Below are positions 14,697 through 41,100 of a stretch of DNA of 64,000 nucleotides, one piece after another (positions within the stretch are counted from its first letter, which is position 1; each line of letters opens with the position of its first letter). A model generated the notes under the pieces. That model ran no database searches, was not told where the DNA came from, and saw only the letters and a list, made by a program, of their open reading frames with translations. The translations under genes and the position numbers were made by a program. Where the stretch lies: contig OZ253564.1 of the NCBI GenBank assembly GCA_965262915.1, forward strand, positions 2,272,001 through 2,336,000. The letters run 5' to 3'. The stretch comes from Candidatus Spongiisociaceae bacterium. Lineage in GTDB: Bacteria; Actinomycetota; Acidimicrobiia; Spongiisociales; Spongiisociaceae.

Positions 14697-15335
14697 TCAT
14701 CGACCGTCCGGCCGGCGGGTGCGCTCGGCTGTGGCTGGTTGGTGGTCGGCGCAGTCGACTTGTAGCTCGGTGTCGTGCAGTGTCTTGTTGAGCAGGAGGC
14801 AGTGGGCGGGCGACCTGTTCCGGGTGGGTTGGTAGTGGTGGCAGGTGAGGCAGCTGCGGTTGATGCTGATGACGCCCGCAGCTTGGAGCCGAGCGATCTC
14901 TGCGAGCAACAGCCGTAGCGTCGGGCCGCGGGCTTCGGCGGACTCGACGCCGGTGGTGAGCAGGGGCGAGAGCCGAGTGGTGATGTCGGCGGCTATGTCG
15001 GCTCCGGCAGGGCTGAGGGAGACGAGCGTGCTGCGGCGGTCGCTGGGGTCGCGTCGGCGGATAACTAGACCGTGCTGGTCGAGTGTGGCTAGGGCGTCGC
15101 TCGCTGTGGGCTGGGAGATGTGGAGTTCCGCTGCGAGGTCGCCGACCCGACGCTTCCGGTTGTCGGCGAGGGTTTCGAGGATGCTGACGCCGAGTGTGGA
15201 GAGGTGGTAGCGGGTGGCGAGATACTGGCGGGCGGCGCGTAGGGCACGGCCGAGCCGTTCGACCGCGGCGAACAGCTTGCGGTCGAGGTCGCAGGTGCCG
15301 GCTAGGGATTGGATTTCGGGGTTGGGACGGGACAT
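14697..15335 (-). CDS. MarR family regulator with C-terminal Cys cluster
   Basis: winged HTH plus DPSDRRS; CLTCHH..HC..C tail. Confidence 0.85.
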   Translation of the reverse strand: MSRPNPEIQSLAGTCDLDRKLFAAVERLGRALRAARQYLATRYHLSTLGVSILETLADNRKRRVGDLAAELHISQPTASDALATLDQHGLVIRRRDPSDRRSTLVSLSPAGADIAADITTRLSPLLTTGVESAEARGPTLRLLLAEIARLQAAGVISINRSCLTCHHYQPTRNRSPAHCLLLNKTLHDTELQVDCADHQPATAERTRRPDGR

Positions 15336-15841
15336 CCGATGTGGGGATCGCAGTCGGCCGCTGGCTGGGGGTGGGGTTCGTCAATGAGGCGGGCGAGGGT
15401 GGCACCGACGATGAGGTCGTCGATCTGGCCGAACCGGTTAAGACGGATACGTCCCGCCCGGTCGATGACAACCAGGCTCGGGGTGCCCCGCAACTGGAAC
15501 CGGCCCATGGTGATCGGCAGCGCGACCCCGGCGTCGTGGGAGTCGACACCGACCGGGAAGGTGATGCTGTACTCGTACAGGAACGCTTCGAGTGAGACTG
15601 GGGGCATCGCGTCGTGGTGTTCAAACACGCTGTGGAGCCCGAGCAGGGCGATGGCGTCGCCGAAGACGTGTTGGATACGCTTAGCCTGTGGCAGTCCGTG
15701 GGAGACGCAACCCGGACAGAGCATCTGGAACGCCTCGATCACCACAACCTCGCCCCTGAGATCGGCCAAAGTCGGATTGTCGGCAGTATTGAACCAACGG
15801 GTGATCGCCAGTTCAGGAGCAGCAGGGTACGCCGACTGCAT
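15302..15841 (-). CDS. redoxin/peroxiredoxin-like thioredoxin-fold protein
   Basis: AFQMLCPGC, HSVFEHH, GTPS, DRAG. Confidence 0.85.
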   Translation of the reverse strand: MQSAYPAAPELAITRWFNTADNPTLADLRGEVVVIEAFQMLCPGCVSHGLPQAKRIQHVFGDAIALLGLHSVFEHHDAMPPVSLEAFLYEYSITFPVGVDSHDAGVALPITMGRFQLRGTPSLVVIDRAGRIRLNRFGQIDDLIVGATLARLIDEPHPQPAADCDPHIGCPVPTPKSNP

Positions 15842-15927
15842 GCTCACCGGCGGTTGCGCTCCCGCCAAGGGCCACAAGGTGGGGGAAGGTGCCGGATAGG
15901 CGGGGTGATAACAGTTCGAGCGTCCAT

Positions 15928-15950
15928 GGGTTCCTATTATATAGGAACCC
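15928..15950. promoter_or_regulatory. putative MarR operator
   Basis: Perfect inverted repeat GGGTTCCTAT-tat-ATAGGAACCC upstream of the redoxin-marR operon. Confidence 0.6.
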
Positions 15951-16416
15951 TATATATCTGGTCAACACAATGCGCCCACGAAACGATGAGTGGGAGACTG
16001 CGATGCTAAGGCACAGGCGCAGGATCGAAATGACCTTCCTGTGAGTATCTACGTGGCGGGGCCTTGGGGATGGTGGAAGATGGGACTCGGGCAGCTACGT
16101 CGACACACGAACCTTCCCCAACTGCTTCCGGTCGACGGCTGCACTGCCCGGCAGACTGCAACGAGATTCCGCTCGGCGTACTAGTCGAAGGTCGATCCCG
16201 TTGTCCACCATCTCATCCAACCCATTGCGCGCGCTGTTGGCTGACTCAGCCGGCGGCCGATTGGACTGTCCCTGTTTCTCGGAGACTCTGGGACATCACC
16301 GCAACGTCCACCAAAGGTGGGCCAACGTCAAGGGCGGATGATCCCCGCGGCCGCGAGGGCGATTAGGGTTGCCCGGTCCCTTCCGCCCGATGACAGAACA
16401 GTCGAGGAGGCTCCCA

Positions 16417-17688: not shown

Positions 17689-18440
17689 TCAGGGCAAGGA
17701 GGCGAGGTGGTAGCTGGTGCTGCGGCCCCCGGCTGGACTATGGGCCAGGATCGCGTGGTTGACGAGGCCGGTGATGTCGCGAAGGGCTGTGTCCTGGGAG
17801 CATTTGGCGATCTTGGCCCACTTGGAAGTGGTCCATTCGCCGTCGAAGCCGTCTAGGAGACGGTTCAGCACGCGCCGCTGCCGGTCGTTGAGGGGAACAG
17901 TCCCGACGTGCTGCCAGAAGCGGGCTTTGGTGAGCACCGCCGCCAGGGTGGCCTCTGCTCTGTCGATCGCCCGACCCAAACAGGCCAGGAACCAGCCCAT
18001 CCATTCCGACACGTCTATGGTCTCCTTCTGGGTTCGTTCCAGAACCTGGTAGTAGCCGCTGCGCTCCGCCCGGATCTGCGACGACATGCTGTAGAAACGC
18101 TGCGAAGTGCTCTCCGAACGGGCTAGGGCCATGTCAGTGATCGCCCGCGCTACGCGTCCGTTGCCGTCGTCGAAGGGATGGATGGTTACGAACCACAGAT
18201 GCGCCAGGGCGGCTTTGAGTACCCCATCGATGTCCGACCCTGTGTTGAACCAGTCCAGGAACTCTTCGATCTCTTGGTGGATACGCCCGGCCGCCGGTGC
18301 CTCGTAATTGACCCGTTCCCGACCGATAGGACCCGAGATGACCTGCATGGGTCCGGTGCTGTCGTCCCGCCAGCCGCCCACGATGATCCGTCTCAGGCGA
18401 CTACGGCCCGTGGGGAACAGAGCAGCCTGCCAACCCCGCT
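17689..18440 (-). pseudogene. Fic family protein, 5'-truncated paralog
   Basis: HPFDDGNGRVAR motif; colinear with the last two-thirds of 24287-25399. Confidence 0.85.
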
Positions 18441-22342: not shown

Positions 22343-22690
22343 TCAGCTCGGTATGTCCAGGATCAATCCGAGAAGATCACGGATCTGCGACACGGCGACG
22401 CTACCGACATTCCCGCGTATGTGGTTGGCCCGGCTGGCGGCGACTGCACGAATGTGCTGGCACTGAGCGGCGGACCGGCGGTCGAGGCCGTTGGTCGAGT
22501 CGACATCTATCACCACCTCCGACGCGAACCCTCGAACAGCCGATGTGAGCGGCACTACCTGAACGACTGTCGGCGTGGCATCCAGCACGCGCTGCGCGGT
22601 CACCACGACTGCCGGACGACGGAAGCCCGCGTCGCTCCCAGTCGGATGGCCGAGGTCCATATCGACCACATCACCCGAGGTCAGCATCAA
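22343..22690 (-). CDS. mazF: PemK/MazF family toxin
   Basis: GDVVDMDLG.P.G..AGFRRPAVVV, VVPLTS, AQCQHIRAV. Confidence 0.85.
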   Translation of the reverse strand: MMLTSGDVVDMDLGHPTGSDAGFRRPAVVVTAQRVLDATPTVVQVVPLTSAVRGFASEVVIDVDSTNGLDRRSAAQCQHIRAVAASRANHIRGNVGSVAVSQIRDLLGLILDIPS

Positions 22691-22865: not shown

Positions 22866-23229
22866 GCAATTATGCTAACAGAAGTGCCTGCCGATTCTGT
22901 TGCCGCCGAACCCAGCTTGTCGGTGCTTGCCTGCGCCTCGGCTGGAGTGATCCCCGCCACAGCTCGAGGCCGGTGCGAGGCGTGGCGGGTTCTCGTCCTG
23001 CACATCCAGACTGCTTCGTGTCGTGGACGCCCGACGCGTCGCCGCGGAGAGTGCCCCAGTTGTTCTCGGCCGTCGGGATGGTGGTCGTGCTTCCAGTAGA
23101 TGTGCCGCCTGACGAAGACGAATCGTGCCGGGGGCGGGGCCGTGGTTCTCGTCGGGGTACGACCTTTGCGGCAGACTGACGCCGAAAGCAACAGGCACGA
23201 ACAGTCCACGGAACCCGGCAATTCCGCGC

Positions 23230-23661
23230 AGGGCCGAGTTGTTTCTCCAGCGCGGGTGTGACCTTGTCGGGTGGAACGAAGCGGACCACGGCGTCGGCTG
23301 AGCGTTCTCTGTTTGCTGTGACCGGAATGAAGAAGATTCTGAGGCAGTACTCGGGGCTGGTGAGAACATCGTCGTCGACACCTGTACGGTGGCCCGCAAG
23401 GAAGTTCGATACGTCCGCGGGGAGCTGCGCTTGTGCCTTCCGCAGAGATCTCAGCGACCCGTCGTTTCGGAACCCGCTCAGCTGGAGCGGTACGGCTAGG
23501 CGGTCACCCAAGGCGGCGTCCTCCCCGAACTGGGCGACCAATAGGTTCTCGAAGTTCAGGAGCATCGCCTGTGCTTCACCCGCCACCGCAACGTCCAACG
23601 CGGGCAGATCCCTGGCTTCAGTGGGCGATATACCATTCGCCCACAACAGCGCCTCCAAGTG
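23230..23661 (-). pseudogene. DUF3644-like protein fragment
   Basis: GEAQAMLLNFENLL..FG..L..PLQLS..YCLRIFFIP..AN...ADAVVRFV. Confidence 0.55.
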
Positions 23662-24286: not shown

Positions 24287-25399
24287 CTATGACGAGGTCG
24301 TGAGGGAGTAGTTGGTACTGCGACCACGTGCGGAACTTCGGACGAGAATTCCGTCGTTTACCAGGGCTGCTATGTCGCGTAGGGCGGTGTCTTGGGAGCA
24401 TTTGGCCAGTTTTGCCCACTTCGAGGTGGTCAGCTTGCCCTCGAAACCGTCCAGGAGTCGGTTGAGAACCCTGCGCTGCCGCACGTTGAGCGGGACGCCC
24501 TCGTTCTGTTGCCAGAAGCGAGCTTTGGTGAGCACAGATGCCAGGGTGGTCTCGGCTCCGTCGATGGCTCGGCCGAGGCACGCTAGGAACCATCCCATCC
24601 ACTCCGAGATGTCCGGTGTTGCCTTCTGGGTTCGTTCCAGGATGTGGTAGTAGGCGCGGCGTTCCACCCGGATCTGCGACGACATGCTGTAGAAACGCTG
24701 TGAACTGTCCTCCGAGCGGGCTAGGGCCATGTCAGTGATCGCCCGGGCGATGCGCCCGTTGCCGTCGTCGAAGGGATGGATGGTCACGAACCACAGATGC
24801 GCCAGCGCCGCCCGAAGCACGCCGTCAGTATCCGACGGCTCGTTGAACCACCTAAGGAACGCTTCCATTTCGTTGTCGATCCGCTCGGCCGCGGGTGCTT
24901 CGAAATGCACCCGCTCCTTGCCGATGGGTCCGGAGATCACTTGCATGGGTCCGGTACGGTCGACGCGCCAGCCGCCCACGGTGATCGGTCGCATCCGGCT
25001 ACGCCCGGTTGGGAAAAGAGCCGCCTGCCAACCCCACAGCCGGTCTCTTGTCAGGGACAGGTCATAGTTGCCGGTTGCGTCCAGCATCATCTCCACCACG
25101 CCCTCAACCTCGTCCTCAGCATGGCGAAGACCACCGATGTCCATACCGAGGCGACGTCCGACAGAGGAACGGACCTGTTCCAGGTCCAGCCGTTCCCCCT
25201 CGATGTCGCTGGACTTGTGAACATCCTGGGTCAGAGTCTCGAGAATCGCCTCCTGCCGAAGATCGAACCCCAGCGACTGCATCTGGCCCACCAAACGTCC
25301 CTGTTTGTAGCGGACAGCAGCGAGGCGGTCCGCCAGACTGTCTGTCTGCCAGCGGAGTTGGGGCCATCCCGGCTGTTCATGAATATATAACCGCCGCAT
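24287..25399 (-). CDS. Fic family protein (DUF4172-Fic-HTH)
   Basis: YIHEQPGWP N-terminus, HPFDDGNGRIAR, C-terminal wHTH SQDTALRDI..GRSTNY. Confidence 0.92.
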   Translation of the reverse strand: MRRLYIHEQPGWPQLRWQTDSLADRLAAVRYKQGRLVGQMQSLGFDLRQEAILETLTQDVHKSSDIEGERLDLEQVRSSVGRRLGMDIGGLRHAEDEVEGVVEMMLDATGNYDLSLTRDRLWGWQAALFPTGRSRMRPITVGGWRVDRTGPMQVISGPIGKERVHFEAPAAERIDNEMEAFLRWFNEPSDTDGVLRAALAHLWFVTIHPFDDGNGRIARAITDMALARSEDSSQRFYSMSSQIRVERRAYYHILERTQKATPDISEWMGWFLACLGRAIDGAETTLASVLTKARFWQQNEGVPLNVRQRRVLNRLLDGFEGKLTTSKWAKLAKCSQDTALRDIAALVNDGILVRSSARGRSTNYSLTTSS

Positions 25400-25641: not shown

Positions 25642-25715
25642 TTCGCGACTTCGCTACGGTTTTGGGACATTTCGCCAGGGTTTTGGGAATTCGCCAACTT
25701 AGATGGGATCGGACA
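25642..25715. mobile_element. Tn7-like right end of an older upstream element
   Basis: Three tandem sites TTCGCY-N-GGGA starting at 25650, 25671 and 25690, ending GGGATCGGACA. Confidence 0.75.
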
Positions 25716-26246
25716 ACAGCTGTCCGATCCCGCTGTAGTTGGCGAGGAAATGCCCGATTCGCCAGGGTTTTGGGACATAATCGGTCGGTGACGTCCCATC
25801 GAAGTTGGCGAATTCGGAAGACCGGCATCTTGAGGTCAGTCGATAGATAGTTGTCGTATGTTTTAGTAGGTGGACAGTTATCGGTATATGTATACTGCAT
25901 GTTAGTGCGGTGAGAGAGGAGTACGTTTCCTACCTGCTGATACCCGAGGAGGGATCGGTGGATGTATGAATCCGGCCGTTCTTGTAGCCACGTGCGCGCT
26001 GGTCAGGCTCGGCACCATCCGGTAGTTGTACGCGGTTGGGTAGATTGGTCCCTCGGGGATTATTGGTCTCCGCGGGCAGGTGCAGATGTGGAGAGCTGCA
26101 TCCTCTATGGATGTCCGGAGCCCCGGCGCTGTCAAAACGCCGGACACGGGTGAGACCTCAATCCCGGACCCGGCACATGTGGCAATGCCCTATCTGATTT
26201 CTCACTATCATGCTGGCCTGAGAGTGGATCTTGTAGCGGGGGGACC

Positions 26247-27354
26247 TTGCCTGACAGCTACTTCGAGCGTAATGCGGACTACACGCTGAGGTGGCCGAGA
26301 GAGCTATTCGCCGCAGAGGCTGAACTGCTCGTCCGACGCGGGATCCAGATGGGTACAGGACCCGACTGGACGAGCGAGGTGACATTGCTTCTGAAGGAAG
26401 CGTTCATGTCGGATGTGCCCGCCGCGGACTTCGAGGAGGTCGCTCGGAGGAATCGGGAATTGGATGAGGCGCCTTTCTGATTCACCCTTGACTTGGCTCA
26501 GCACTCTCGCGGATGCTGCACCTGCGCTTGCCCCGCAACGCCGGCCGTTGCCGTACTACTCCCAGCGCGAGCCAGGCATTCAGAGCCGTGAGTCGTCACT
26601 GATAGCGGTCGTCAGGCGTGTTCGTGCGCTGGTCGGAGAGCTGGAGGGAAAGCACTACTTCGCTGAGTTTCTAGGTTTCGACTGTGTTGACTATGACGCT
26701 CGCCTGTCTACACCTGAGCTCGAACTCGATCGTCGTATCGGCAAACAGCGTCTGTGGTCGGCTGAACCCGACGATTGGACAGAACCGGACCTTTGCGACT
26801 TCATCGAAGTGTTCCACGACTTGGCTTCGCGACCCACTCAGCTTTCGTGGCATAGTTATAACTATTGCGGTTGGCACCCCGAGGCCTTCTCTCACAGAAC
26901 CGGTCAAGCCCTCTACCGGTGGGAGATGAACCAACTACTCGACTCATCCACTTTCGGGCTCAGGCTTGCTGAGCACGGTCAGGATCTCGGCCGTATGGTG
27001 CGAGCAACCGGTGGCGAGCTAGGACAGATGATCGACGAGGCACTCGCTGCCGAGTCGGCTGCTCATGATTCCATAAGCCATGCGGTCTCCCTCTACCGTA
27101 GACGCGGCGCAACTAGAGAGGACTGCCGGTCAGCAATTCGGGAGTTGGCCGCCATCCTCGAGGAACGTAGGGAGTCGCTAAGACGTCAGCTTCTCAAGAG
27201 GGATGAACAGGCATTGTTCGAGATCGCTAACCAGTTTGATATACGACATCGTAACGCTTCACAATATCAGGAGTATGGCTCTGAGTTCCTAGACTGGATA
27301 TTCTACTGGTACCTGGCGACAGTTCAACTTACCGACCGGCGCCTTGATCGATAG
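26247..27354 (+). pseudogene. AbiJ-like abortive infection protein, probably one gene split by a frameshift near 26480
   Basis: A 77-aa ORF leads directly into a ~290-aa ORF; C-terminus LFEIANQFDIRH..FLDWIFYWYLAT. Confidence 0.5.
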
Positions 27355-27789
27355 CCGTCATGGCCTACTGCATCGGGCTTTCCACCCCCAATCCGACCAT
27401 GGACCCCCCGTGTGGTGGGGGCGAGACAAATGGTCAGCGTGTCGGAGTCGTGAGCGCCAACCGAGGGTTGGGGAAGCGAACTTCGCACTCCCGCTTACCT
27501 CCGACATATACGGGGGGTCTCACGACTGATCATGTATTTACGAGCGGTTTGGGGGCGGGAGGCGTTCCCGCCATTGCCAGCTTCCGGGTAGTGCCGTGAC
27601 CGTGATGTTATCGACGCTCTCGACGCCGGACCGTAGGCCGCTCGAAGTCGAACTGGCCGAGGTGCGGCGCTTTGGCATAACCATGCGGTATGCGACGACC
27701 GAATACCAGGTGTTGCACCCATATCCGCTGGTCGCGAAAGGCCCTGCCACGAACTACCTAGACGACGTGAAAGAAGAGTACGAGTGACC

Positions 27790-28050
27790 TAAGGCTTGCT
27801 AACGGGCGGGTGGCTACGGATCGCTTTTCAAGTCGGCAGCGGCCCGCATCGGGCACTGTCTCGATCACGTCGGTTGGCCATACCAGCCAGGGGCGCGCGC
27901 TGACCGGTACCCGCGGTACGTGGCCCGCGAACATTCGTAAAGCGCATCGGCGTGATCTGCGGCGGTTATGCGGGCACCCGTTGTGGTGCTGGCGGATGTG
28001 GTGGGCTGCTCCGGTGAGGGTCGCGTCGAGGGTTTGTGACAGTGCTTCTA
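27790..28050 (-). pseudogene. degraded ISL3-like transposase N-terminal relic
   Basis: CPH...VPVSARPWLVW resembles the ISL3 zinc-finger region. Confidence 0.3.
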
Positions 28051-28058
28051 CTAGATCC

Positions 28059-28074
28059 TGAGTAATGTTACTCA
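28059..28074. promoter_or_regulatory. inverted repeat upstream of the AAA ATPase gene
   Basis: TGAGTAA-TG-TTACTCA. Confidence 0.5.
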
Positions 28075-28105
28075 ATAGGCGTGTTGATCCGGTACGCTCT
28101 TTGTT

Positions 28106-29365
28106 ATGAGGGGTTTCCAGCGTGCTCAGGTTGCGACTCTGGTTGAGCGGTTGTCGGAGCCGCCCGAGCGTCTTATCGCGATATTCGGCCCGCGACAGAT
28201 CGGCAAGACCGTGGCGGCTCGGCAGGCGTTTTCCTCGATTGGGTGTCCAGGCTCGTACGTGGCAGTTGATGAGCCCGACTCACAGGTGGCGACAGCTTGG
28301 CCGTCAACGGACGCCGCCGACGATTCTGTGTTGGCACCTGGTGTGCGCGACACTCGCTGGCTGACGGATGTTTGGGAGAGGTGCCGTCGCCAGGCGCTGC
28401 GCTCGGAGCGGGGGTACGTTCTGATCCTGGATGAGATCCAGAAGATAGATGGCTGGTCGGATGCGGTGAAGGGGCTCTGGGACGCGGACCGAGCCAGCGG
28501 CTGCCCTATGCATGTTGTTGTTCTGGGTTCGGCACCGTTGCTGATGCAGGCCGGTTTGAACGAGAGCCTTGCGGGACGTTTCGAGCCGATCCGGTTCGCG
28601 CACTGGTCCTATCCCGAGATGTCCGAGGCGTTTGGTCTCAGCCTGGCCCGGTACGTCTATTTCGGTGGCTATCCGGGTGCGGCTTCCCGAGTCCACGACC
28701 AACCGAGATGGAGCGCCTATATCAGGGACGCTCTGGTCGAGCCCATCATTGAGAGGGACGTGCTGTCGATGACGAGAGTCGACAAGCCGTCACTGTTGAA
28801 GCGTCTCTTCGATGTGGGTGCGCTGTATTCGGGGCAGGTGGTGTCGTACAACAAGATGCTGGGTCAGCTCCACGACGCTGGGAATACCACGACCCTCACC
28901 CGGTATCTCAAGCTTCTGTCGGATGCGGGTCTGTTGACGGGGCTGTCGAAGTACACGAAGCGTCCGATTTCCGCGAAGGCCTCCATCCCGAAGCTGAACG
29001 TGCTCAACACGGCTCTGATGGCTGTCGTTTCAGGGTATGACTTTGAGGATGCACGTGCGGATCGCAGCTTCTGGGGTCGTCTGGTCGAGAGCGCGGTGGG
29101 TGCCCATCTTCTTAACACTGCATCGTCTGGCACCGAGGTCAAGTATTGGAGGGACAGGAACTACGAAGTGGGCTTCGTTCTCCAAAGAGGCCCGCGAGTA
29201 GTCGGAATCGAGGTCAAGACGGGAACGGAGCCGGGGAGCCTCTGGGGCTTGGCCGAGTTCGAACGGCGTTTCCAGCCCCTGCGGACCCTGGTCGTGGGGA
29301 CAGGGGGCGAGCCGCTGCACGAGTTCCTGTCGTTGCCTGCGGATTGGTGGTTCGAGCCCGCATGA
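28106..29365 (+). CDS. AAA_14 ATPase with DUF4143 (PD-D/ExK-like) C-terminal domain
   Basis: GPRQIGKT, LILDEIQ, ESLAGR, GGYP, GRLVESAV, YWR..EV.FV..IEVK. Confidence 0.88.
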   Translation: MRGFQRAQVATLVERLSEPPERLIAIFGPRQIGKTVAARQAFSSIGCPGSYVAVDEPDSQVATAWPSTDAADDSVLAPGVRDTRWLTDVWERCRRQALRSERGYVLILDEIQKIDGWSDAVKGLWDADRASGCPMHVVVLGSAPLLMQAGLNESLAGRFEPIRFAHWSYPEMSEAFGLSLARYVYFGGYPGAASRVHDQPRWSAYIRDALVEPIIERDVLSMTRVDKPSLLKRLFDVGALYSGQVVSYNKMLGQLHDAGNTTTLTRYLKLLSDAGLLTGLSKYTKRPISAKASIPKLNVLNTALMAVVSGYDFEDARADRSFWGRLVESAVGAHLLNTASSGTEVKYWRDRNYEVGFVLQRGPRVVGIEVKTGTEPGSLWGLAEFERRFQPLRTLVVGTGGEPLHEFLSLPADWWFEPA

Positions 29366-32300
29366 GCCTCATCGTCGACCGAACCTGCACCGAGATCGAG
29401 ATGGATAGCGACGGCTTGGTCCGTCTTGGTGACAGCAAACCTTTGGGTGGGTTCCGATCGACGCCGGCCTATGTGCTGCTTGGCGATCCCGGCGCCGGCA
29501 AGACGACCGAGTTCGGAAGGGAAGCCGAAATGATGGCAGCGTCAGGCGAAAGGGCCGAGTACGTGAAGGCCCGGGACTTCGTCACGCTGCATATCGACTC
29601 GCATCCGGAGTGGCATGGCAGCGTTCTGTTCATCGACGGCCTCGACGAGATACGATCAGGGTTGGTGGACTCGCGACCTCCGCTGGATGAGATCCGCAGC
29701 CGCTTGGAGCAGCTCCGGCCGCTGGGTTTCCGTGTCTCCTGTCGCGAGGCGGACTGGTTAGGCCACAACGACCGGCAGAACTTGGCGGTCGTCTCTCGGG
29801 ATTCGCGCATAACCGTTGTCCGGTTGGACCCGCTAGACCACAAGGCGGTCGGGCAGATGCTGGCTCAAGAGATCCCCGATTCAGAGATACAGGATTTCAT
29901 CGAAAACGCTCTGTCGTGGGATATCTGGGACCTGTTGGAGAACCCTCTCACACTGCAACTGCTGGTGGCAGCGATCAGCCAAGAGGGCGGTTGGCCACAG
30001 AGTCGACGCGAGACGTTCGAGATGGCCTGCGAGAAGTCGGCAACCGAACAGAACCAAGAGCATCTAATACCGGCCACTTCGGAGTCGTCGACGGCCCTCA
30101 TGAATGCTGCCGGGTATCTCTGTGCTCTGCAACTGCTCTCAGGCCTTGAGGGATACTCACTCCAACCCGGGCTACACGACCCTTCATTCTGGGCTTTGGG
30201 CGACCTCGATGAAACGGTACTTCCTATCCCAAAGCCCAGACTAAGGCGGGCGTTGGCTACGAGGCTGTTTACCGCCGATGACGAAACAGGATTCCTACCT
30301 CGTCATCGCCAGCTGGCGGAGTTCCTCGGGGGCCGCTACCTGGCGAAGCTCGTTAAGGACGGGCTACCCGCCCGAAGGGTGACGGCTCTCATGACAGCTC
30401 CCAGCGATGGACGGGTAGCAACAGCACTCCGAGGCCTGTCGGCTTGGCTAGCGGCACACTCCGCCGAGGCGCGCAGCCTGCTGATCGACTCAGATCCAGT
30501 AGGTGTAGGCCTCTACGGTGACATCAGCGGTTTCAGCACCCGCCACAAGAAACATCTGCTCACGTCGCTGGCTACCTTCGCAACGCAGGGAGCCCTGCTG
30601 GGTTACGGATGGCGTAGGCTCCCGAACGGCGGGTACGGGGACGAAACCGCGTGGGCCTTTCGATCCCTTGTATCCGAAGAAATGGTTCCTGCTTTAGAAG
30701 ATCTGCTCAAACGAAGCGGTGACGAACCAACCACCGACCGGGTCCTCGAGTTCGTGCTACAAGTGCTATCAAACGCCGAGAACACGGATTTGGGACGTCT
30801 GGAGACCCTGGTCCCGGAGGTGGAAGCGATCCTGTGGGATCCGGGCCGACCATCCCGGATACGCCAAGCTGCCCTCGAAGCATACATTCGGGTAGCTCCG
30901 CCGGGTGACACCAAGACACTCAGGCTGAGAGTCGTCTTGGATGCAGTCCACAACCGCACGATCCCTGACCCTGACGACCAACTCGCTGGAACCCTACTGC
31001 GTCACCTCTACCCCAACGACCTCCCACCGGCCGAGGTTTGGCAGTACGCCGGACCTCGGAACAGCCATAGGGACATGCGTAGTTTCTGGGGGTTTTGGGA
31101 CCGTGTTCTCCTCAGGAAGTCATCGCACGAGCAGATCGCGGGCCTGCTGGATGCTCTCTACGAGAATTCCTCCGACATAGTCCCGGTGCTGCAGGACTCC
31201 GGGTTCGAAGACCTACCGGTTCGGCTTCTGGCACAAGGCTTGCGGGCGATCGGTGACGACATCCACCTGTCCCGTCTCTACCAGTGGCTGACCGCTACTG
31301 TCCCTCCGCTCAGATGGCGACGCACTGCCGACGAAGATGTCGACTACGTGCGAACCTGGCTCGAGGATCGACCCCAGATTCAAAAGGCGATGGTTCTGGG
31401 GCGGCTAAAGCCGAATGACAATCCCTACCGCTTCGCTTCGTACCGCGGCTATGCCGGTGATGTCCTACACAACAGCAGACTCCCGGCCGACTTCGGGATC
31501 TGGTGCCTTGATCAGGCGATACAGGTCGCTGCGACGGATCCGGACCTCTCACAGACGCTACTGAAAGAGTCGTTCTACTCGTTGAGGGATCCCAAAATCA
31601 GCAGGGGGTTGACACTCGAGTTGATGCAGGAACGGGTGAGTGGGCTTGCGGCACTGGAGAGACAACTTCAGGAGCTAGACGCATCCCAATCGTCGGCAAC
31701 TTCCGCCAATCGTGATGCACCTTGGCGGAAGGAGATGGAAGAACTCAGAGAACAGCAACTTAAGGAAACCAAGAAACGCCGCGACGACTGGGCACACCAT
31801 CTGCGCACGCAGGAAACCGAACTAAGAGCAAACACCTTCCCCCCTCACAACCTCCACTATCTGGCCCTGGTATGCCTTGCGGAGGGGAGTGGCGTCTACC
31901 CGTCACCCCCCGATCGTATAGAAGACTTGGTCGGCGACGACCGCCGCCTCGTCGAGGCTGTCATGGCCGCGCTGCGCGGTGGCCTGTGGCGCGACGACGT
32001 TCCCGACCTAGACGAGACGATCTCCCTGCGCTCTCAAGCGAAGATGCCATACCTGGCCCATCCGGTACTGGCGAGCATGGACCTGCTGTTCCACGAACCA
32101 GATCACGAGCGGAGCATTGATAGAGCCCAGATGCGGCGAGCCCTCGGTATCTACTACCACTGGGGTCAGCTCGCTCGCGACGCACAGGCTTGTCATGACG
32201 CGTGGTTGCAGCAAGACCCAGACCTGGTATTCGATGTCCTGTACCGTTGCGCGGTAGCAGCACTCCGCAACGGTGACGAAACCCTTCCCGGTGTCTACGA

Positions 32301-33516
32301 CCTAGATCGTGTCACAGGAAACGACGACCTCGTATCCAACATCAGACTCAGATTGCTTGAAGCCTTTCCGACACGACTCCCGAACAAACAAATGCAACTC
32401 CTCGACGATCTACTGGAAAAGACCCTCCGGTACGTCGACAACACCAGGGTCACACCGATAGCCAAAAAGAAGCTGACCATGAGAAGCCTGAGCGTCGCTC
32501 AGCGGGTCAGGTGGATGACAGTAGATGCATTACTATCGGGCGGACAACATACACAACAGTTCCGAGCCTACGTCGGAGCAAACGAGAGGCGGATCCGGCA
32601 CCTAGCAGAGTTCCTCCACCACACTTCGGTACACACCGCCCGTGAAACGATCCTCCGGGACAGCCGCGACTCGGAACTACTTGTCAACCTAGTCGAGATG
32701 CTAGGACGCTCCTACGGCCCGCAGGACCTAGACGGGCAAGTCACCGTAGAGAAAAGCACATCCGACCTTATTGGCGGCCTGATCAGCCAGCTAAGCGCAG
32801 CTGCGGACTCCGAAGCTCGCCACGGGCTGGCCAGACTGGTCGCCGACCCACAGCTCCGACGGTGGAACAACCAGCTGACCTGGGCTCAGGAAAAGCAATG
32901 GATCGTTTACCGCGACGTCTCCTACAGCCACCCCAACATCAGGCAGACACAGCGAGCTCTCGGCAACCGGGCACCGGCGAACGCAGCCGACCTCGCCGCA
33001 CTTCTCCGCGATCGGCTCAAGGACATCGCCGACCACATACGCGGTGACAACACCAACCCGTGGCGGCAATTCTGGAACGAAGACCCCCATGGCCGCCTGA
33101 TCGAAGGTAAGCCGGAAAACTCTTGCCGCGACGTACTGCTCGAATCCCTCAAGGAGCGCTTACCCCAAGGCGTCGATGCAGCACCCGAAGGCAGCTACGC
33201 AGCCGACAAACGAGCCGACATCCGCACGACCTTCGACCGGTTCAACGTCCCAACCGAGATCAAGAAAAACGCTCACCGCGACCTCTGGAGTGCCATACGC
33301 AGCCAGCTCATCGACCAGTACACAACCGATCCGGAGACATCCGGGTACGGGATATACCTTGTCCTCTGGTTCGGAGCCAACCAGACACAAAGACCACCGA
33401 ACGGGACGCGACCGAACACCCCCGACGAATTAGCCCAACAACTCGAGAACGAGCTAACAACCGACGAAACACGCAAGATCACAGTAATCGTGATAGATGT
33501 CACCAAGCCCAGTTGA
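29362..33516 (+). CDS. NACHT/STAND NTPase with C-terminal restriction-fold nuclease (Avs-like candidate)
   Basis: LLGDPGAGKTT, LFIDGLDE, SCR, NPL; C-terminal E..KRADI..EIKK..GIYLVLWFG; ATGA overlap with the upstream gene. Confidence 0.8.
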   Translation: MSLIVDRTCTEIEMDSDGLVRLGDSKPLGGFRSTPAYVLLGDPGAGKTTEFGREAEMMAASGERAEYVKARDFVTLHIDSHPEWHGSVLFIDGLDEIRSGLVDSRPPLDEIRSRLEQLRPLGFRVSCREADWLGHNDRQNLAVVSRDSRITVVRLDPLDHKAVGQMLAQEIPDSEIQDFIENALSWDIWDLLENPLTLQLLVAAISQEGGWPQSRRETFEMACEKSATEQNQEHLIPATSESSTALMNAAGYLCALQLLSGLEGYSLQPGLHDPSFWALGDLDETVLPIPKPRLRRALATRLFTADDETGFLPRHRQLAEFLGGRYLAKLVKDGLPARRVTALMTAPSDGRVATALRGLSAWLAAHSAEARSLLIDSDPVGVGLYGDISGFSTRHKKHLLTSLATFATQGALLGYGWRRLPNGGYGDETAWAFRSLVSEEMVPALEDLLKRSGDEPTTDRVLEFVLQVLSNAENTDLGRLETLVPEVEAILWDPGRPSRIRQAALEAYIRVAPPGDTKTLRLRVVLDAVHNRTIPDPDDQLAGTLLRHLYPNDLPPAEVWQYAGPRNSHRDMRSFWGFWDRVLLRKSSHEQIAGLLDALYENSSDIVPVLQDSGFEDLPVRLLAQGLRAIGDDIHLSRLYQWLTATVPPLRWRRTADEDVDYVRTWLEDRPQIQKAMVLGRLKPNDNPYRFASYRGYAGDVLHNSRLPADFGIWCLDQAIQVAATDPDLSQTLLKESFYSLRDPKISRGLTLELMQERVSGLAALERQLQELDASQSSATSANRDAPWRKEMEELREQQLKETKKRRDDWAHHLRTQETELRANTFPPHNLHYLALVCLAEGSGVYPSPPDRIEDLVGDDRRLVEAVMAALRGGLWRDDVPDLDETISLRSQAKMPYLAHPVLASMDLLFHEPDHERSIDRAQMRRALGIYYHWGQLARDAQACHDAWLQQDPDLVFDVLYRCAVAALRNGDETLPGVYDLDRVTGNDDLVSNIRLRLLEAFPTRLPNKQMQLLDDLLEKTLRYVDNTRVTPIAKKKLTMRSLSVAQRVRWMTVDALLSGGQHTQQFRAYVGANERRIRHLAEFLHHTSVHTARETILRDSRDSELLVNLVEMLGRSYGPQDLDGQVTVEKSTSDLIGGLISQLSAAADSEARHGLARLVADPQLRRWNNQLTWAQEKQWIVYRDVSYSHPNIRQTQRALGNRAPANAADLAALLRDRLKDIADHIRGDNTNPWRQFWNEDPHGRLIEGKPENSCRDVLLESLKERLPQGVDAAPEGSYAADKRADIRTTFDRFNVPTEIKKNAHRDLWSAIRSQLIDQYTTDPETSGYGIYLVLWFGANQTQRPPNGTRPNTPDELAQQLENELTTDETRKITVIVIDVTKPS

Positions 33517-33559
33517 GTGTCCTAGCTAGGAAGGCAATCCGTTCACGCGGATAGCCGAT

Positions 33560-33651
33560 TGTCAGTTCGCGTTGTAGTTGGCGAGGAAACACCCCATTCG
33601 CCAGGGTTTTGGGACAGAAGTGGCGACTGACGTCCCATTGAAGTTGGCGAA
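33560..33651. mobile_element. second (nested) Tn7-like left end
   Basis: TGTCAGTTCGCGTTGTAGTTGGCGAGGAAA with internal sites at +37 and +72, the same spacing as the end at 25721. Confidence 0.75.
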
Positions 33652-33839
33652 AACGGAGAACTCCCTACATGAGTCTGACGGATCGATAGGTTATAGATGT
33701 GTCACTTGTAGTATACGGGATAGTAGATGTTAACAGATAGAAAAGATAGGGTAGAGCCGACCGTCGTATGATCTCATCCGGGGAATCCGCTATCTCGAGG
33801 TTAAGGGTCGACAAGTAGGCGGAGCGCGCTACGGCCGCG

Positions 33840-34552
33840 GTCAGCCTGAGAGCTTGGTAGGGGTGACCAAGCCCGGTGTTTCGGCGTTGAGTATTCCGGA
33901 ACGTCTCCTGAGACGCTTTCTGTCCTCCGGGGTCAACTGCTCACGGATTACGGTGGGTTGTTCGAGAAGGCTCAGGAGTAGTGCCAGATCGCTTCGCTGC
34001 GCGTGGGGTAGGTCGTCGGCGTCGACCGCGGCGGCTTTAATGATGATCGCGCCCAGCAGCGATGGTCGAGGGACCAGACCCCTCGGAATCGCCAGCGACG
34101 ATGGGTAACAACTCGGTCCGAGCTAGGGCCTGGGTGCCTCCCGGAACCTGCAGAGTACGCCCCGGCGGGGTAGTGGTGATGTCTGTTCTAGGTCCAAGAC
34201 CCTCGGGTGCCAACACATCGAGGCTGACTCGGCCACTGTGATAACGGTGGGCCAGCCCTTCGGGCGACGCGCCAGCGAGCACGAATCCTCGACCTTGGAT
34301 GGCTCGGACGAATTCGCGGACGCCGCCCGTGACGACCCGTGCGTTCACTAGCACATCCAGATCAGAGGACACTCGCACTGGTTCGACGTCGCTTTTGATG
34401 GCGTGGACGAACACCATTTGGCCCCCGATGAGGGTCCACCCCTGAGGCCGCAGGTCAGCGAGTTCAAGGAGGGATCCCTAAAGGCTGTGCTTATAACCCG
34501 CCAGGATCGGCAACTGGACAGGCTCCCGGTCGAGTACCGGCCAGCGGATCAC
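33840..34552 (-). pseudogene. nucleotidyltransferase toxin (AbiEii/MenT-like), disrupted
   Basis: WTLIGGQMV..SSDLDV motif; in-frame TAG at 34478-34480 and a frameshift near 34075. Confidence 0.7.
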
Positions 34553-35214
34553 AGCAGTTGCAGGAGTTGGGTGGCGGCCCGCCGGGACCGGTCATCATCG
34601 GCTTCGAGCAAGTCGACAGCCACGATTGCCGGTGGCGCAACCTCGTCACTGGGATCGAAAGGCCAGAGCCGGTCCGCCACGACCCGCAGAGCAACGTTTG
34701 GTCGCTCGGGGTCTTCGTCTAGAGCGTACCGACTGGCAAGGGCAGGCAACGCGGCGGCTGGGGCATAACCCTCGAACTGGTCCGTTGCCACTATGTCGAG
34801 CCGGTAGTAGGCCGCCGCACTGATACCCGAGGGGACGACATCCGATTGCGCCCCAAGGAGTGGAAGGATGGAAGGGTGAGCGTAGAAGGAGCGCAACGTG
34901 GCACGTACCGCCAACTGTACGAGAAGATGTTCCAGTCCCGCGTCGAGACGACGGCGAGCTCGGGAACGCTGGGAGGGAGACAGGGCGGTATCCCGGCCGC
35001 AAGCAACAGCCAACAGCGCCCACGCCGACTCCGGCTGCCATGGCCTACCCGCAGTGGCGCGATACTGTCTCAGGGGCTCGAGGGCGCTGGGATCAATGAC
35101 CCATGTCCTCCCAACTCGCTGACCCCTGATGGTTCCGCGAGCGAGCATCTGCCGAACCCGGCGACGACTGACGCCCAGTTCGGTTGCCGCATCGGCTACC
35201 CCTAACAAATCCAT
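34549..35214 (-). CDS. HTH antitoxin of a type IV (AbiEi/MenA-like) TA system
   Basis: N-terminal HTH_17 (AATELGVSRRRVRQM); C-terminal VAVDLLEADDDRSRRAA; overlaps the toxin start. Confidence 0.7.
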   Translation of the reverse strand: MDLLGVADAATELGVSRRRVRQMLARGTIRGQRVGRTWVIDPSALEPLRQYRATAGRPWQPESAWALLAVACGRDTALSPSQRSRARRRLDAGLEHLLVQLAVRATLRSFYAHPSILPLLGAQSDVVPSGISAAAYYRLDIVATDQFEGYAPAAALPALASRYALDEDPERPNVALRVVADRLWPFDPSDEVAPPAIVAVDLLEADDDRSRRAATQLLQLL

Positions 35215-35523
35215 AACGATATAGTACTACTACCGGAAGTATTATGTCATCCATGGTCGCTTTGGCCACATGTAACGCTGTTATGAAAGATCTTCACTAG
35301 GCGACCGGCCCTCGACAGCCTGAAAAACGTATCGGACGAATCAACAGTAACGGTCCTGTAACAGCCGGTCGACGTTCCTACCCAACCACGAATCCAGATC
35401 GTGGTGGTGTGGAATGAATGATCTCCGGTGTGTCAGTTCCACATGCGATAGTTGGGTTCGTGGAAGAAGTCGCCGTGTGTGGTGGCTGCGACATCGGTGG
35501 CAAACGTCGGATGGAGTTTTGAG

Positions 35524-35790
35524 ATGGGAGGCCACGACCAGGAGCAATTGACGGATGAGAAACATGTCCGGCTTGCCAGAGAGATGCACGAGCGTTGGCA
35601 GCGGGGTGAGCCGAAGTCTCGTCTTGAGATCGAGTACTGGGGCAAGGGCACCGCTCACGGGAAGGCATTCTCCGGGTATGTCAGGCGGTGGCTAGGGATC
35701 GAGACCGAACGGCAGCCAAGCCAGAGCGCAAGAATTGCCAACTTGGAGGCCCTGTTGCGAGCAAATGGGATCTCACCCACGGAAGCGGGT
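35524..35790 (+). pseudogene. N-terminal fragment of a DUF3644-associated protein
   Basis: Ends in LEALLRANGISPTEA, nearly identical to the start of the 23661 fragment. Confidence 0.5.
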
Positions 35791-35795
35791 CAACC

Positions 35796-35875
35796 TCAGT
35801 CAACGGTGTCGACTCGCACCCCCCTCACGCGAACACCCGACAAGTGCAGACGAACAGACATAACATCAGACATCG
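35796..35875 (-). pseudogene. ISL3-like transposase N-terminal relic
   Basis: RBS AGGAGG followed by MSDVMSVRLHLSGVRVRGVRVDTVD; truncates the opposite gene. Confidence 0.35.
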
Positions 35876-36071
35876 AGGCCTCCTGGGACCGGCGAATTTG
35901 GTAACTCACCGATTCCAGCGAGGCCTCACCCCTACGGTTATCGCGACTTCGCCAGGGTTTTGGGACGTCTCGCCAGGGTTTTGGGGTTCTTCGCCAAAGT
36001 TTACGGATTTCGCCAACTTGAACGGGATCGGACAACAACTTGAGGTTGTGATCGGTTCCCTCGAAGCTACA

Positions 36072-36099
36072 ACTTTACATAACGTGCATTATGGGACAT
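36072..36099 (-). other. dif-like XerC/XerD recombination site
   Basis: ATGTCCCATAA-TGCACG-TTATGTAAAGT: 11-6-11 layout with CATAA/TTATG inner palindrome and a XerD-like arm. Confidence 0.8.
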
Positions 36100-36141
36100 C
36101 CCAGGAGGCCGGGATAGCTGCCCGTGAGTGCCCGGTTTGGC

Positions 36142-36444
36142 TTATGGGAGGATGCTGTGGTCGCCGCAGCGGTGCCACACGACGTGTCGTGTCCCGATTC
36201 TGAGGGGTTGGTCCCATGAGAATGTTGCGCGTCCGTCGGGTGCCCAGGTCATCTCGTAGAGGCCCGTTACCCCGCGTACTCGTTTGACGCGTAGCCCGGG
36301 TCGGAACCATGTCTGTTTGCCTGCTTCGATTGAGCGTAGATCGGCGATGAATTGGGAAAGAGCGGCTTCGAGCCGCTTCTCCTGCGTGTTTGTGAGCCGT
36401 CCGTAGTCGCGCAGGAACGTAGGCGTTTCTTCATGTGTCGGCAT
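36142..36444 (-). CDS. RelE-like toxin
   Basis: FLRDY..L..PGLRVKRVRGVTGLYEMTWAPDGRATF..WHRCGDHSIL. Confidence 0.7.
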   Translation of the reverse strand: MPTHEETPTFLRDYGRLTNTQEKRLEAALSQFIADLRSIEAGKQTWFRPGLRVKRVRGVTGLYEMTWAPDGRATFSWDQPLRIGTRHVVWHRCGDHSILP

Positions 36445-36645: not shown

Positions 36646-37068
36646 GAATCGACCCTCCCCTTTCGCGGTTGCTTCCTAGAGTCTACTTCCGCAACGGCGA
36701 AGGTGGACCAGGGAGAGACACATCTACGGGCCAGGAACCATCCTCGGGCTTGTCAGTGCCGGTCGCTCCGTCAATCAACCCAACCCGGTTCCTGTTCGGA
36801 AACGCCGGGTCATCGCGGTCGGCTAAGTAACCGTCGCACCCGTTGTTACCCCAGGTGAGCACCTATCCGCGCACCCTCTAAGCCTGAATCCACCGATTCA
36901 TGTTCCGAAAACCAATCCTGACCAGGGCGATCTCCGGGATCCACCACTCACAGGAAGTTGTTCCTCTTCCCAGGACCGAACCATCCTTACCAATAGCTAT
37001 CGCCGCAGATCAGGAGGCATTTCCACCATATCCCCATGTCCGCTGCGCCCTCCCATCGGTGGATTCGG

Positions 37069-39429
<2,361 letters not shown>

Positions 39430-39987
39430 GCTAACTCCTCGAGGCCCCTCCATCACAACCCCGACTGCGTCCACCGCGTCACCACCACACGGCGGGCGGG
39501 TCATGCACGGCACAATCGCGTTGCCCCATGCCTCTGAAGATGACCGTGTGCTCCATCAGCCTATGTATTGCGCCCACGCGTTCACAAACACGCGGCGCCG
39601 TGCAAGTCTGGTTGAACATGTGGGGCAATCGGTTCTGAAGTTCGATCATCATGTGCTGGAGGCGCCTAGCCGTGTGGGGCATGTTGAGCGGCGTGGCGGT
39701 ACCGGGATCGAAAGTGATCAGTTCGAGGGTCGTGTTACCGGCCACGTGTGTTCCTGGCAGTCACATCTGTACTTCCCACCCGAGATCGGTAGCCCGGACA
39801 TCTCTTCGACAAGCCCGACTCCAAAGGGGGTGTGGTCGGTACGAATGCGGGTACACCATGCCTTACCTAGCCTGATCATCTCCTCGTTCTCAAGGCCGAT
39901 CGATAGGGCATCCTCGTACCCATCCCTCATCGACGAACCCCTCTAACCGTTGTGTCCGTCCAAGGCAACATGGTTCTGTTGGAGCGG

Positions 39988-41100
39988 TCACATCTGTTCG
40001 ACGTAGCTGGCGGCGATGTGTTCGGGCGGGTTGGTGTAGCGGGCGATGTAGCGTTGCGAGCGGTGGCCGAGGCGTCGTTCGAGTTCGTAGGGGTCGGCGT
40101 TGGTGGCTTGGGCGAGTTGGAACGCGAACGTGTGGCGGAGGTCGTGGGGTCGGAGTGGGCTTATCTGACGTTCAGGGTCCGTGTGTTCAGCGTCGTGGAG
40201 ACGGCCGATGCGTTCGAGGATCGTGTTGACACTGCGTCCGGAGAACCGCCCGTCGGGCGGCGGCTGCTCACTGATACGGCGGACAGGAACAATGCGGTGG
40301 AATCGGCGTCGGCCGGTCGTTCCACCTCCAGGTAGTCGGCTAGGGCACGGCGTGCGTCGATGGACAGGAACACTGTGCGCTGGGTTTTCCCCTTGCCCCG
40401 AACACCCACGATCCGGGCACGGCGGGCGGAACGCAGCAGTGCTGGTTGGGACGGTTGACCTGGTCGACGTCAAGCAGCACAAGTTCTTGGCGTCGGAGTC
40501 CGGTGGACAGCAGTAGGAACACGATGGCACGATCGCGGATAGGGCGGCTGTGGCCATGACGCTTCGGTGGAGCCCCTCTCCCCCGCCGCCGGCCCCTACG
40601 TTGGCTGTATCTTTCGAGCCGGTCGCATAGGTTCTTGAGTGATCTCACCTGCGCCTCGGTGAGGCTTCGCGGTTCCAACGGTGGCAGGGGCAACACGCCG
40701 ACATCCGTGGAAGGGTTCCCGGTCGCAAACAGATCAGACGCTTGCGCGCTCACCCAGGTTGTGAATCCCACCAGCGACGCCACATGGTTGTTGACAGTGG
40801 CCGGAGCTAACTTCTCAGCGAGGCCACGCTGCCAGTCGACCACGTCAAGGCGGCCAACTGTGGAGATCCGCTCATGGCCGTACACGTCGACGAAGAAAGC
40901 CCGGAAACGGTCGAGCGAGGTGCAGATCGATCTTGGCCGCGACCTGTGGAGAACGCACACCCTCTACCACGAGGGGTTCGTAGCGATCCACCCACACTGG
41001 GAGGCTGTCGGGAGTCGAATCCAAACCGTTCGCGCCACGATCGAGTCGGGTGGCATTATCTTCACGGCGAGACAAGGGTGGAGGAGCAACCGAAGCGGTT
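39988..41100 (-). pseudogene. tyrosine recombinase with three frameshifts
   Basis: RDRAIVFLLLSTGLRRQEL, RGKG, PHDLRHTFA and LGH..RY spread over four frames. Confidence 0.85.

Follow-up and report, generated by a model that had tools for sequence, protein, structure and literature searches.

Tn7-like transposons with many different attachment (att) sites have been described, among them an actinobacterial clade that Benler et al. 2021 (PMC8649781) call uncharacterised. Insertion beside dif is known from Acinetobacter, where insertion sequences (IS) of the IS1202-family ISAjo2 type have been presented as 'dif site hunters' (Harmer, Pong & Hall 2023, PMC10132070). We analyzed a 64,000-nt stretch of the genome of a Candidatus Spongiisociaceae bacterium (contig OZ253564.1, positions 2,272,001–2,336,000; hereafter, the window), in which the ends of two Tn7-like elements, E1 and E2, are stacked in tandem next to a 28-bp dif-like site. 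This locus is quite probably the attachment site of a family of Acidimicrobiia Tn7-like transposons that homes beside the chromosomal dif, with E2 being a non-autonomous element mobilised in trans. Within the literature searched, a Tn7-like element homing to dif is new.

The dif site is a single-copy, non-coding sequence that is present in most bacteria with circular chromosomes, is needed for chromosome dimer resolution and is permanently visited by XerCD and FtsK. As an att site for Tn7-like elements, it would be of a new kind, a protein-bound recombination site and not a conserved gene, and it would connect the targeting of Tn7-type elements with the way in which the Tn5053 res hunters operate. 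The preliminary description of the window, made from its letters and open reading frames (ORFs), had stated that no described dif-targeting pathway was known to it; the ISAjo2-type elements (PMC10132070) correct this statement. No Tn7-like element homing to dif was found in print in a full-text literature search. The word 'dif' is absent from the main texts of two studies, Benler 2021 and Faure 2023, whose supplementary att-site tables could list dif, as well as from those of a 2024 Annual Review on CRISPR-associated transposons (CASTs) and a 2025 archaeal Tn7 preprint.

The elements described here share with Tn7 (attTn7 at glmS) and Tn7-like transposons, including the actinobacterial clade of PMC8649781, the TGT/ACA termini, the asymmetric arrays of TnsB sites and the 5-bp target-site duplication (TSD). 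The right end points towards the att site, insertion takes place at some tens of bp from the sequence thought to be read, elements stack in tandem, the cargo is rich in defence genes, and the gene set comprises tnsB, tnsC and putative tnsA-like and tniQ genes. In contrast to these systems, which use a conserved gene or tRNA, the att site here would be the non-coding dif. Moreover, the TniQ family has very few members, catalytic positions are missing from the TnsA-like protein of the one autonomous copy, and most copies are non-autonomous. The Tn5053/Tn402 res-site hunters likewise have TniA/B/Q-type machinery aimed at a multimer-resolution site, and one element of the present family (in genome G403) carries a serine resolvase. 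However, Tn5053/Tn402 elements target plasmid res sites bound by serine resolvases, carry tniR and have no TnsA, whereas the target here would be an Xer/dif site and a TnsA-like gene is present; the autonomous copy does not have the tniA-tniB-tniQ plus tniR organization without tnsA.

The ISAjo2-type elements, according to PMC10132070, resemble the present family in having a TnsB-related DDE transposase, a 5-bp TSD, TGT/ACA ends supplemented by an additional internal site, and a constant orientation beside dif or pdif. They are ∼1.5-kb IS with a single transposase of 441–457 aa and no TnsC or TniQ, and insert 5 bp from the XerC arm, whereas the elements here are multi-gene and cargo-carrying (1.2–25 kb), lie 37–39 bp from the arm and come from Actinomycetota. 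None of the elements here is a ∼1.5-kb single-transposase IS located 5 bp from the XerC arm. Tn6022 is a further case of a Tn7-like element linked to tyrosine-recombinase-type proteins, and the autonomous copy of the present family also carries an Xer-like recombinase. Tn6022 contains an XerC-like/dif-like module and homes to comM through TnsF (PMC10293859 and PMC11014353); its dif-like site is inside the element, whereas here dif is an external target and the role of the recombinase in targeting is putative.

Transposon ends and the dif-like site of the window

The locus reads, from left to right, GGGATCGGACA (25715)-ACAGC-TGTCCGATCCCG (25721)...CGGGATCGGACA (36034)-ACAAC-32 nt-ACTTTACATAA CGTGCA TTATGGGACAT (36072–36099). 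Its features are the following.

25642–25715, plus strand: right end of the fossil element E1; terminus ...GGGATCGGACA; three direct sites at 25650, 25671 and 25690, spacing 21/19 nt; homologous decayed ends adjoin dif in another genus.
25716–25720, no strand: 5-bp junction ACAGC, left copy of the E2 target duplication; ACAGC is at the same place in genome G001.
25721–25812, plus strand: left end of the composite element E2; terminal site, inverted site at 25758 and third site at 25802.
33560–33651, plus strand: degenerate left end (TGTCAGTTCGCG...) in the interior of E2, marking where an older, enclosed 2.5-kb element has its left border; a similar left-end remnant adjoins dif in G002.
35940–36034, plus strand: right end of E2; terminus ...CGGGATCGGACA; four direct sites at 35948, 35969, 35990 and 36009, spacing 21/21/19 nt.
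36035–36039, no strand: 5-bp ACAAC, right copy of the target duplication; 4/5 identical to ACAGC.
36040–36071, no strand: spacer from the insertion point to dif; non-conserved, unrelated between genomes.
36072–36099, plus strand: dif-like site ACTTTACATAA-CGTGCA-TTATGGGACAT (11-6-11); single-copy and conserved in relatives; at a GC-skew inflection.

E2 is 10,314 bp long (25721–36034), and the 28-bp dif-like site begins 37 nt past its right end. The termini and junctions at 25715, 25721 and 36034, as well as the dif-like site, read exactly as given in the preliminary description, which had also correctly identified the packed sites of the right ends and the three spaced sites of the left end. 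E2 is a composite, consisting of a left-end-bearing cargo segment and the older 2.5-kb element, because a second degenerate left end is present at 33560–33651. A left end for the upstream element E1 was searched for, and none was found.

The 11-mer terminus TGTCCGATCCC occurs three times in the window as exact copies (25715, 25721 and 36034). By itself it is not significant: with at most one mismatch, 4 matches were found against 2.37 expected, and 20 of 100 shuffled sequences reached 4. The 19-bp subterminal site is significant, with 6 matches in the window at ≤3 mismatches (0.02 expected; none of 100 shuffles reached 6). Loose motifs of this site are confined in the window to clusters at 25671–25812, 33597–33651 and 35948–36019. 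In the whole genome of the source organism (G000, 5.06 Mb in a single contig; other G labels denote other genomes, and L labels extracted stretches or loci), all five copies with ≤2 mismatches fall inside this locus.

The 28-bp site fits a chromosomal dif, as judged by its 11-6-11 organization, its single copy, its conservation in relatives and its position at the replication terminus. A query of 181 bp, covering the right end together with the dif-like site, was compared with 61 related genomes, and matched 26 of them (G000 included), 20 of 28 in the same family. Outside G000, the matches occur once per genome at 88–100% identity and are limited to the dif-like portion, except in G007 and G001, where part of the right end was also matched. 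The cumulative GC skew of G000 rises steadily to 2.30–2.35 Mb, with the dif-like site at 2,308,072; it is then flat for ∼0.5 Mb and falls from 2.85 Mb, the position of a second dif-like variant. The corresponding dif-like site is present in one copy each in G404 and G405, at 53–57% of the record length, and in two copies in G409. Comparison with consensus sequences gave no assignment of the XerC and XerD arms.

The window site and the second dif-like variant of G000, which have the same orientation and the central regions CGTGCA and CCGGTA, enclose a block of ∼543 kb with near-zero GC skew (2,308,072–2,850,990 of the contig; window 36072–64000 and beyond), possibly a large replicon or island that was inserted at dif. 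G000 has extra dif-like sites at 1.447, 2.851 and 4.016 Mb, with a right flank common to all three that resembles the flank in the window; in a BLAST search, the window flank 36105–36320 matched at the 4.016-Mb site only. Tyrosine-recombinase genes or fragments homologous to window 39886–40869 lie 4–11 kb to the right of the window site and of the 1.447-Mb and 2.851-Mb sites, and no such gene was seen beside the 4.016-Mb site. These features give the appearance of a second class of elements, which carry a recombinase and use dif-like sites. At 2,861,983 (L036:11484), 11 kb rightward of the second dif-like site, there is a further right-type end with three packed sites. It points left, in the direction of a half-site-like sequence TATGGGACGG at ∼50 nt, and has a Phage_integrase fragment just inside.

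Recurrence beside dif and stacking of elements

An end-motif pattern was built from the transposon terminus alone, and dif was not used in the search. It matched 14 of the 401 order-level genomes searched, as against none for a reversed control pattern; a dif-like core lies directly outside the matched end in G000, G001, G007, G159 and G391. Extended to 185,579 species genomes, the search returned 57 stretches with 62 matches, which together with the 3 of the window make 65. A dif-arm motif is present within 100 nt outside the terminus in 16 of the 65, all of them ends with subterminal sites, and in none of the 37 remaining unclassified matches, which are mostly from unrelated phyla. Twelve of the 16 dif-adjacent ends, including the near-duplicates L058 and L091, are located 41–44 nt from the CATAA core (window, L045, L050, L058, L064, L068, L078, L079, L091, L092, L093 and L096; a spurious nearer motif was reported by the script for L092, which is counted by its arm at 43 nt). 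The ends are thus not scattered with respect to dif-like sites, as they would be if the offset proposed in the preliminary description were fortuitous.

The end that faces the site is of the tightly packed right type in every dif-adjacent case read. Eleven of 13 unstacked right-type ends adjoin dif, by an automatic left/right classification that is rough (L058 and L091 were misclassed as left, and a Microbacterium end was called unstacked). The spacers between end and site are unrelated across genomes, so that the site and the distance are what is common. Between host groups, similarity is limited to the dif-like arm and core and does not include either flank; the far arm of the site also varies between genomes. 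A search of a plasmid collection with the right end plus dif gave no match.

Stacks in other genomes support the re-use of a single insertion point. In G401, a series of elements lies beside dif, and each unit is flanked by the same 5-mer, TCTGT, which is seen three times. A composite in G403, consisting of a 0.9-kb mini-element and a 25-kb cargo element, has CACAC on both sides, and the autonomous element in G405 has a perfect CTCAT/CTCAT duplication. Only AGAG is common to both flanks of a mini-element in G404. The same arrangement of right end, 5 bp and left end is found in L076, a contig labelled Myxococcales. The elements stack because each new arrival re-uses the same 5 bp. The proposal that the same 5 bp were hit twice holds in these relatives, which have perfect TSD stacks, and not strictly in the window, where ACAGC and ACAAC agree at four of five positions. 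The ends and their offset, orientation, stacking and duplications were all read directly from the genomes, as was the gene content of the autonomous copy.

The dif loci of relatives indicate the order of events in the window. Empty sites, which the preliminary description had suggested for comparison, were found in G020, G024 and G021, where no transposon end adjoins dif. In G002, a 55-bp remnant of left plus right terminal sequence lies 38 nt from TTTACATAA, with the flank ACAAT. In G007, E1 is present (Fic gene and right end) and E2 is absent. A different genus, represented by G026 and G027, has the Fic gene as well, together with a decayed right end at 39 nt from TTTACATAA. From these loci it follows that E1 is an old, vertically inherited fossil and E2 a later arrival at the same 5 bp; as judged from the sequence comparisons, the fossil is common to other genera. 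In addition, window segment 33810–35274 is 92% identical to DNA adjoining dif in G025.

Micro-elements of 55–100 bp, in which a left end is fused to the last 8–11 bases of a right end, were seen in L005 of G002 (beside dif), in L039:6153–6252 of G007 and in L089. These are either deletion remnants or derivatives resembling miniature inverted-repeat transposable elements (MITEs). A gene for an IS110-family transposase is located within or beside transposon ends in three genomes (L040:8498–10084, on contig C92 of G007; L047; L089). The left end in G007 appears to be interrupted ∼30 nt in, at the L040 transposase locus.

The autonomous copy and the proposed mode of targeting

One autonomous copy was found, in G405 (L147:5123–19960). 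It is 14,838 bp long, and 43 nt separate its right end from the core. In order of increasing distance from this end, its transposition genes code for a TnsA-like protein, TnsB, TnsC and a TniQ-family protein, in agreement with the Tn7-like assignment of the preliminary description. By its predicted gene content, the G405 element is Tn7-like, and it belongs to the uncharacterised actinobacterial clade of Benler et al. The following two genes are located on L147.

L147:11888–12580 and 15122–16069 (G405), strand not given: TnsA-like gene and XerD-like tyrosine recombinase gene, the recombinase lying between the right end and tnsA.

The TnsA-like protein (230 aa) matches a Pfam-positive TnsA in BLASTP (E 5e-14) and has no PDB sequence match. 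TnsB (637–655 aa) contains helix-turn-helix (HTH) domains and a weak Pfam rve match (E 7e-4). In the PDB, the TnsB proteins of Tn6677 and of a type V-K CAST match it best (E 1e-8), and its homologues are annotated with PF00665 (rve) and PF09299 (Mu-transposase C-terminal domain). TnsC matches Pfam TniB (E 3e-15) and VchTnsC (E 2e-8). The TniQ-family protein (365 aa) carries a precomputed PF06527 assignment, and its CCCH residues are invariant or nearly so in a tiny family of 17 representatives (E≤1e-3 among 1.84 billion proteins). The XerD-like tyrosine recombinase is apparently intact (PDB 1a0p, E 5.5e-11) and is among the cargo genes on the opposite strand. A dif-like site was looked for inside the element and not found. 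The G405 copy has no serine resolvase, which is present only in the cargo element of G403; of the transposase genes, G403 has only a TnsB fragment.

The preliminary description had noted no transposase in the window, and none was found in the window or elsewhere in G000. Searches of G000 for a helper with the G405 proteins (tblastn) gave nothing. Pfam searches for Mu-transpos_C and TnsA were also negative, a weak result since neither family matched in 14 control genomes. Candidate transposases adjoining the ends in G007, G159, G000 (at 2.86 Mb) and G403 were identified as either housekeeping or cargo genes. A TniB family search across five genomes yielded mostly Clp-type AAA proteins, and a Microbacterium tnsABC-tniQ operon that it recovered is not at matching ends.

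The ends, the recurring offset and orientation, and the perfect TSD stacks support the earlier interpretation of dif as the target of Tn7-like insertions. In the mechanism that we propose, TnsB would bind the multi-site ends and TnsC would act as a bridge to the target selector, for which the small, rare TniQ-family zinc-finger protein is the candidate, positioned by dif DNA or by Xer proteins on dif. We infer both the role of this protein and that dif is what it senses. Insertion would take place ∼37–39 bp outside one dif arm, with a 5-bp duplication and the right end facing dif; TnsD acts at attTn7 with a similar distance scale and polarity of insertion. E2 would be a later non-autonomous composite with defence-type cargo, mobilised in trans, with no helper left in G000. 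Homing to dif would explain why stacked islands, whose defence and metabolic cargo reaches 25 kb, accumulate at the terminus of these Acidimicrobiia. An effect on dimer resolution of insertions as near as 37 bp to dif is conceivable. The CRISPR guide considered in the preliminary description finds no support in the G405 copy, which has no cas genes among its annotated ORFs; no search for CRISPR arrays or guides was made.

Several observations weigh against homing to dif by this machinery. Some of the ends deviate, with distances to the core of 22 (G001), 38 (G007), 53 (L099) and 56 nt (L055); the right-type ends L047 and L083 have no dif-like arm nearby, and a mini-element in G402 has no TSD. 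The site itself is a putative functional XerCD substrate. Its near arm varies by host group (CTTTACATAA versus TGCTGCATAA), its XerC and XerD sides are not assignable from sequence, and three further dif-like sites in G000 have no insertion. The machinery adds further points. In an alignment with eight relatives, the TnsA-like protein of G405 has two of the three catalytic positions (E-D-K) replaced and a 12-residue gap, and the G405 copy itself may be defective or transpose differently. The TniQ-family protein scores 26.8 bits against a Pfam cut-off of 27, and its predicted model (predicted local distance difference test, pLDDT, 86) has no PDB fold match (best E 0.36) and no PDB sequence match. 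With positive controls that worked, G405 TnsB was found in none of 301 order-level genomes, and G405 TniQ in none of 401 class-level genomes. As one autonomous copy was found, a single element connects the candidate selector with dif.

A variant with the same family and geometry, in which the selector senses the Xer recombinase or recombinases bound to dif and not dif DNA, is a possibility that we consider real, if somewhat unlikely. The same offset is kept beside dif-like sites with differing near arms (CTTTACATAA, TGCTGCATAA) and a varying far arm, a variation that a protein-mediated cue would tolerate; different near arms beside the same end family may thus lean slightly towards a protein cue. 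Res-site hunting by Tn5053 reportedly (Minakhina et al.) involves a protein cue of this kind. The autonomous copy carries its own apparently intact Xer-like recombinase, and the transposase of ISAjo2 has been proposed by its authors to interact with XerC (PMC10132070). However, host-specific TniQ variants that read DNA would explain the same data, and the element-borne recombinase is among the cargo genes on the other strand of an element that contains no detected dif-like site. With a compact 365-aa candidate selector and a defined 28-bp target, recognition of DNA versus recombinase-bound DNA is directly testable.

The degenerate TnsA, together with the Xer-like recombinase of G405 and the serine resolvase of G403, may suggest replicative transposition with cointegrate resolution. 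More speculatively, and improbably as a whole, a minimal TniQ could sense Xer bound to dif, which would allow homing across hosts with different dif sequences, while the dead TnsA would lead to replicative transposition and the cointegrates would be resolved by an element-borne Xer-like or serine recombinase.

The true attachment determinant could also be another conserved feature near dif, such as a small gene or RNA on its far side, with dif as a bystander. A small ORF to the right of dif (36142–36444, minus strand) does have a homologue inside an element of G401, and a further copy of the right flank adjoins a different dif-like site. This explanation is nevertheless very unlikely, as the dif-like arm and core are all that the host groups have in common at these loci. 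It is still less probable that no measured targeting occurs, and that elements build up near the terminus from harmless insertions or from a TnsE-like preference for terminating replication forks. The Tn7 TnsE pathway prefers replication termination regions, and mobile DNA is abundant around the terminus of G000; yet a regional preference would scatter the ends, whereas 12 ends in different genomes lie at 41–44 nt with the right end facing the core, and identical TSDs are re-used in stacks. We give practically no credence to integration by XerCD recombination, as in integrative mobile elements exploiting Xer (IMEX) or dif modules: the elements adjoin dif, and three of the four dif-like sites of G000 have tyrosine-recombinase genes or fragments 4–11 kb to the right, but the elements have TGT...ACA ends with transposase-site arrays and 5-bp TSDs and lie 37 nt outside the site, and neither the integration within dif nor the flanking dif-type sites of IMEX and dif modules, which have no TSD, were found.

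Homing of the Tn7-like family to dif does not extend to all of its distant relatives. A first metagenome scan with the single G405 TnsB found no relative; a second scan, with a TnsB alignment, recovered 80 loci, all at only 32–42% identity. By a crude heuristic and manual selection, ∼19 of the 80 were judged to have a recognisable right end and flank. Two of these ∼19 (L164 and L169) have right ends 39–51 nt from an actinobacterial-type dif-like site, and different flank motifs recur at the remaining loci. Therefore, homing to dif is lineage-specific and not general, and it may have arisen more than once. Members of the same actinobacterial TnsB clade (L149, L150 and L222; L161, L168, L176 and L193) have different conserved motifs 45–60 nt outside their right ends, e.g. 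CACACACCTCTTGCA, which are probably other, uncharacterised att sites.

TniQ relatives were not detectable in the 80 metagenome loci, though their TnsA and TnsC proteins are clearly related to those of G405. Neither these loci nor a k-mer protein search yielded a close relative of TniQ or of the TnsA-like protein. Rarity of TniQ amid related TnsA and TnsC is as expected of a specificity module.

Cargo and neighbouring genes

The genes carried by E1 and E2 in the window are listed below.

24287–25399, minus strand: Fic/DOC gene, 370 aa, cargo of E1; Pfam DUF4172 and Fic; the same gene adjoins dif in G007, G026 and G027.
26413–27354, plus strand: cargo ORF, 313 aa; no Pfam match; weak PADLOC PDC-S32 match (E 7e-7).
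28106–29365, plus strand: cargo AAA_14/DUF4143 ATPase (Pfam); PADLOC candidate defence family PDC-S01 (E 3.3e-154).
29365–33516, plus strand: cargo protein of ∼1400 aa; no Pfam match; top language-model look-alike clusters 'NACHT domain-containing' and DUF8371.
34549–35214, minus strand: HTH_17 DNA-binding protein, 221 aa (Pfam).

The language-model look-alikes of the ∼1400-aa protein offer a lead to a NACHT/STAND-like function. Elsewhere, the G405 element carries an OLD/AriA/GajA-like ATPase (PADLOC), and the cargo of the G403 element includes metabolic genes, among them those for a 2-oxoacid dehydrogenase and an ABC transporter. Several elements contain cargo only.

A truncated second copy of the Fic gene, with 77% DNA identity to that of E1, is found upstream of E1 together with a MazF/PemK toxin gene and a DUF3644 gene (window 17689–18381, 22343–22690 and 22870–23658). 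No transposon end was found next to any of these three genes. On the other side of the locus, a UvrA-like double ABC ATPase with a zinc-finger insert (814 aa; 37069–39513, minus strand) is located within the 8 kb that separate dif from the gene adjoining dif in G024, G026 and G027. A MITE-like repeat of ∼200 bp (window 36862–37073) is present in at least 15 other places of the genome at 93–98% identity.

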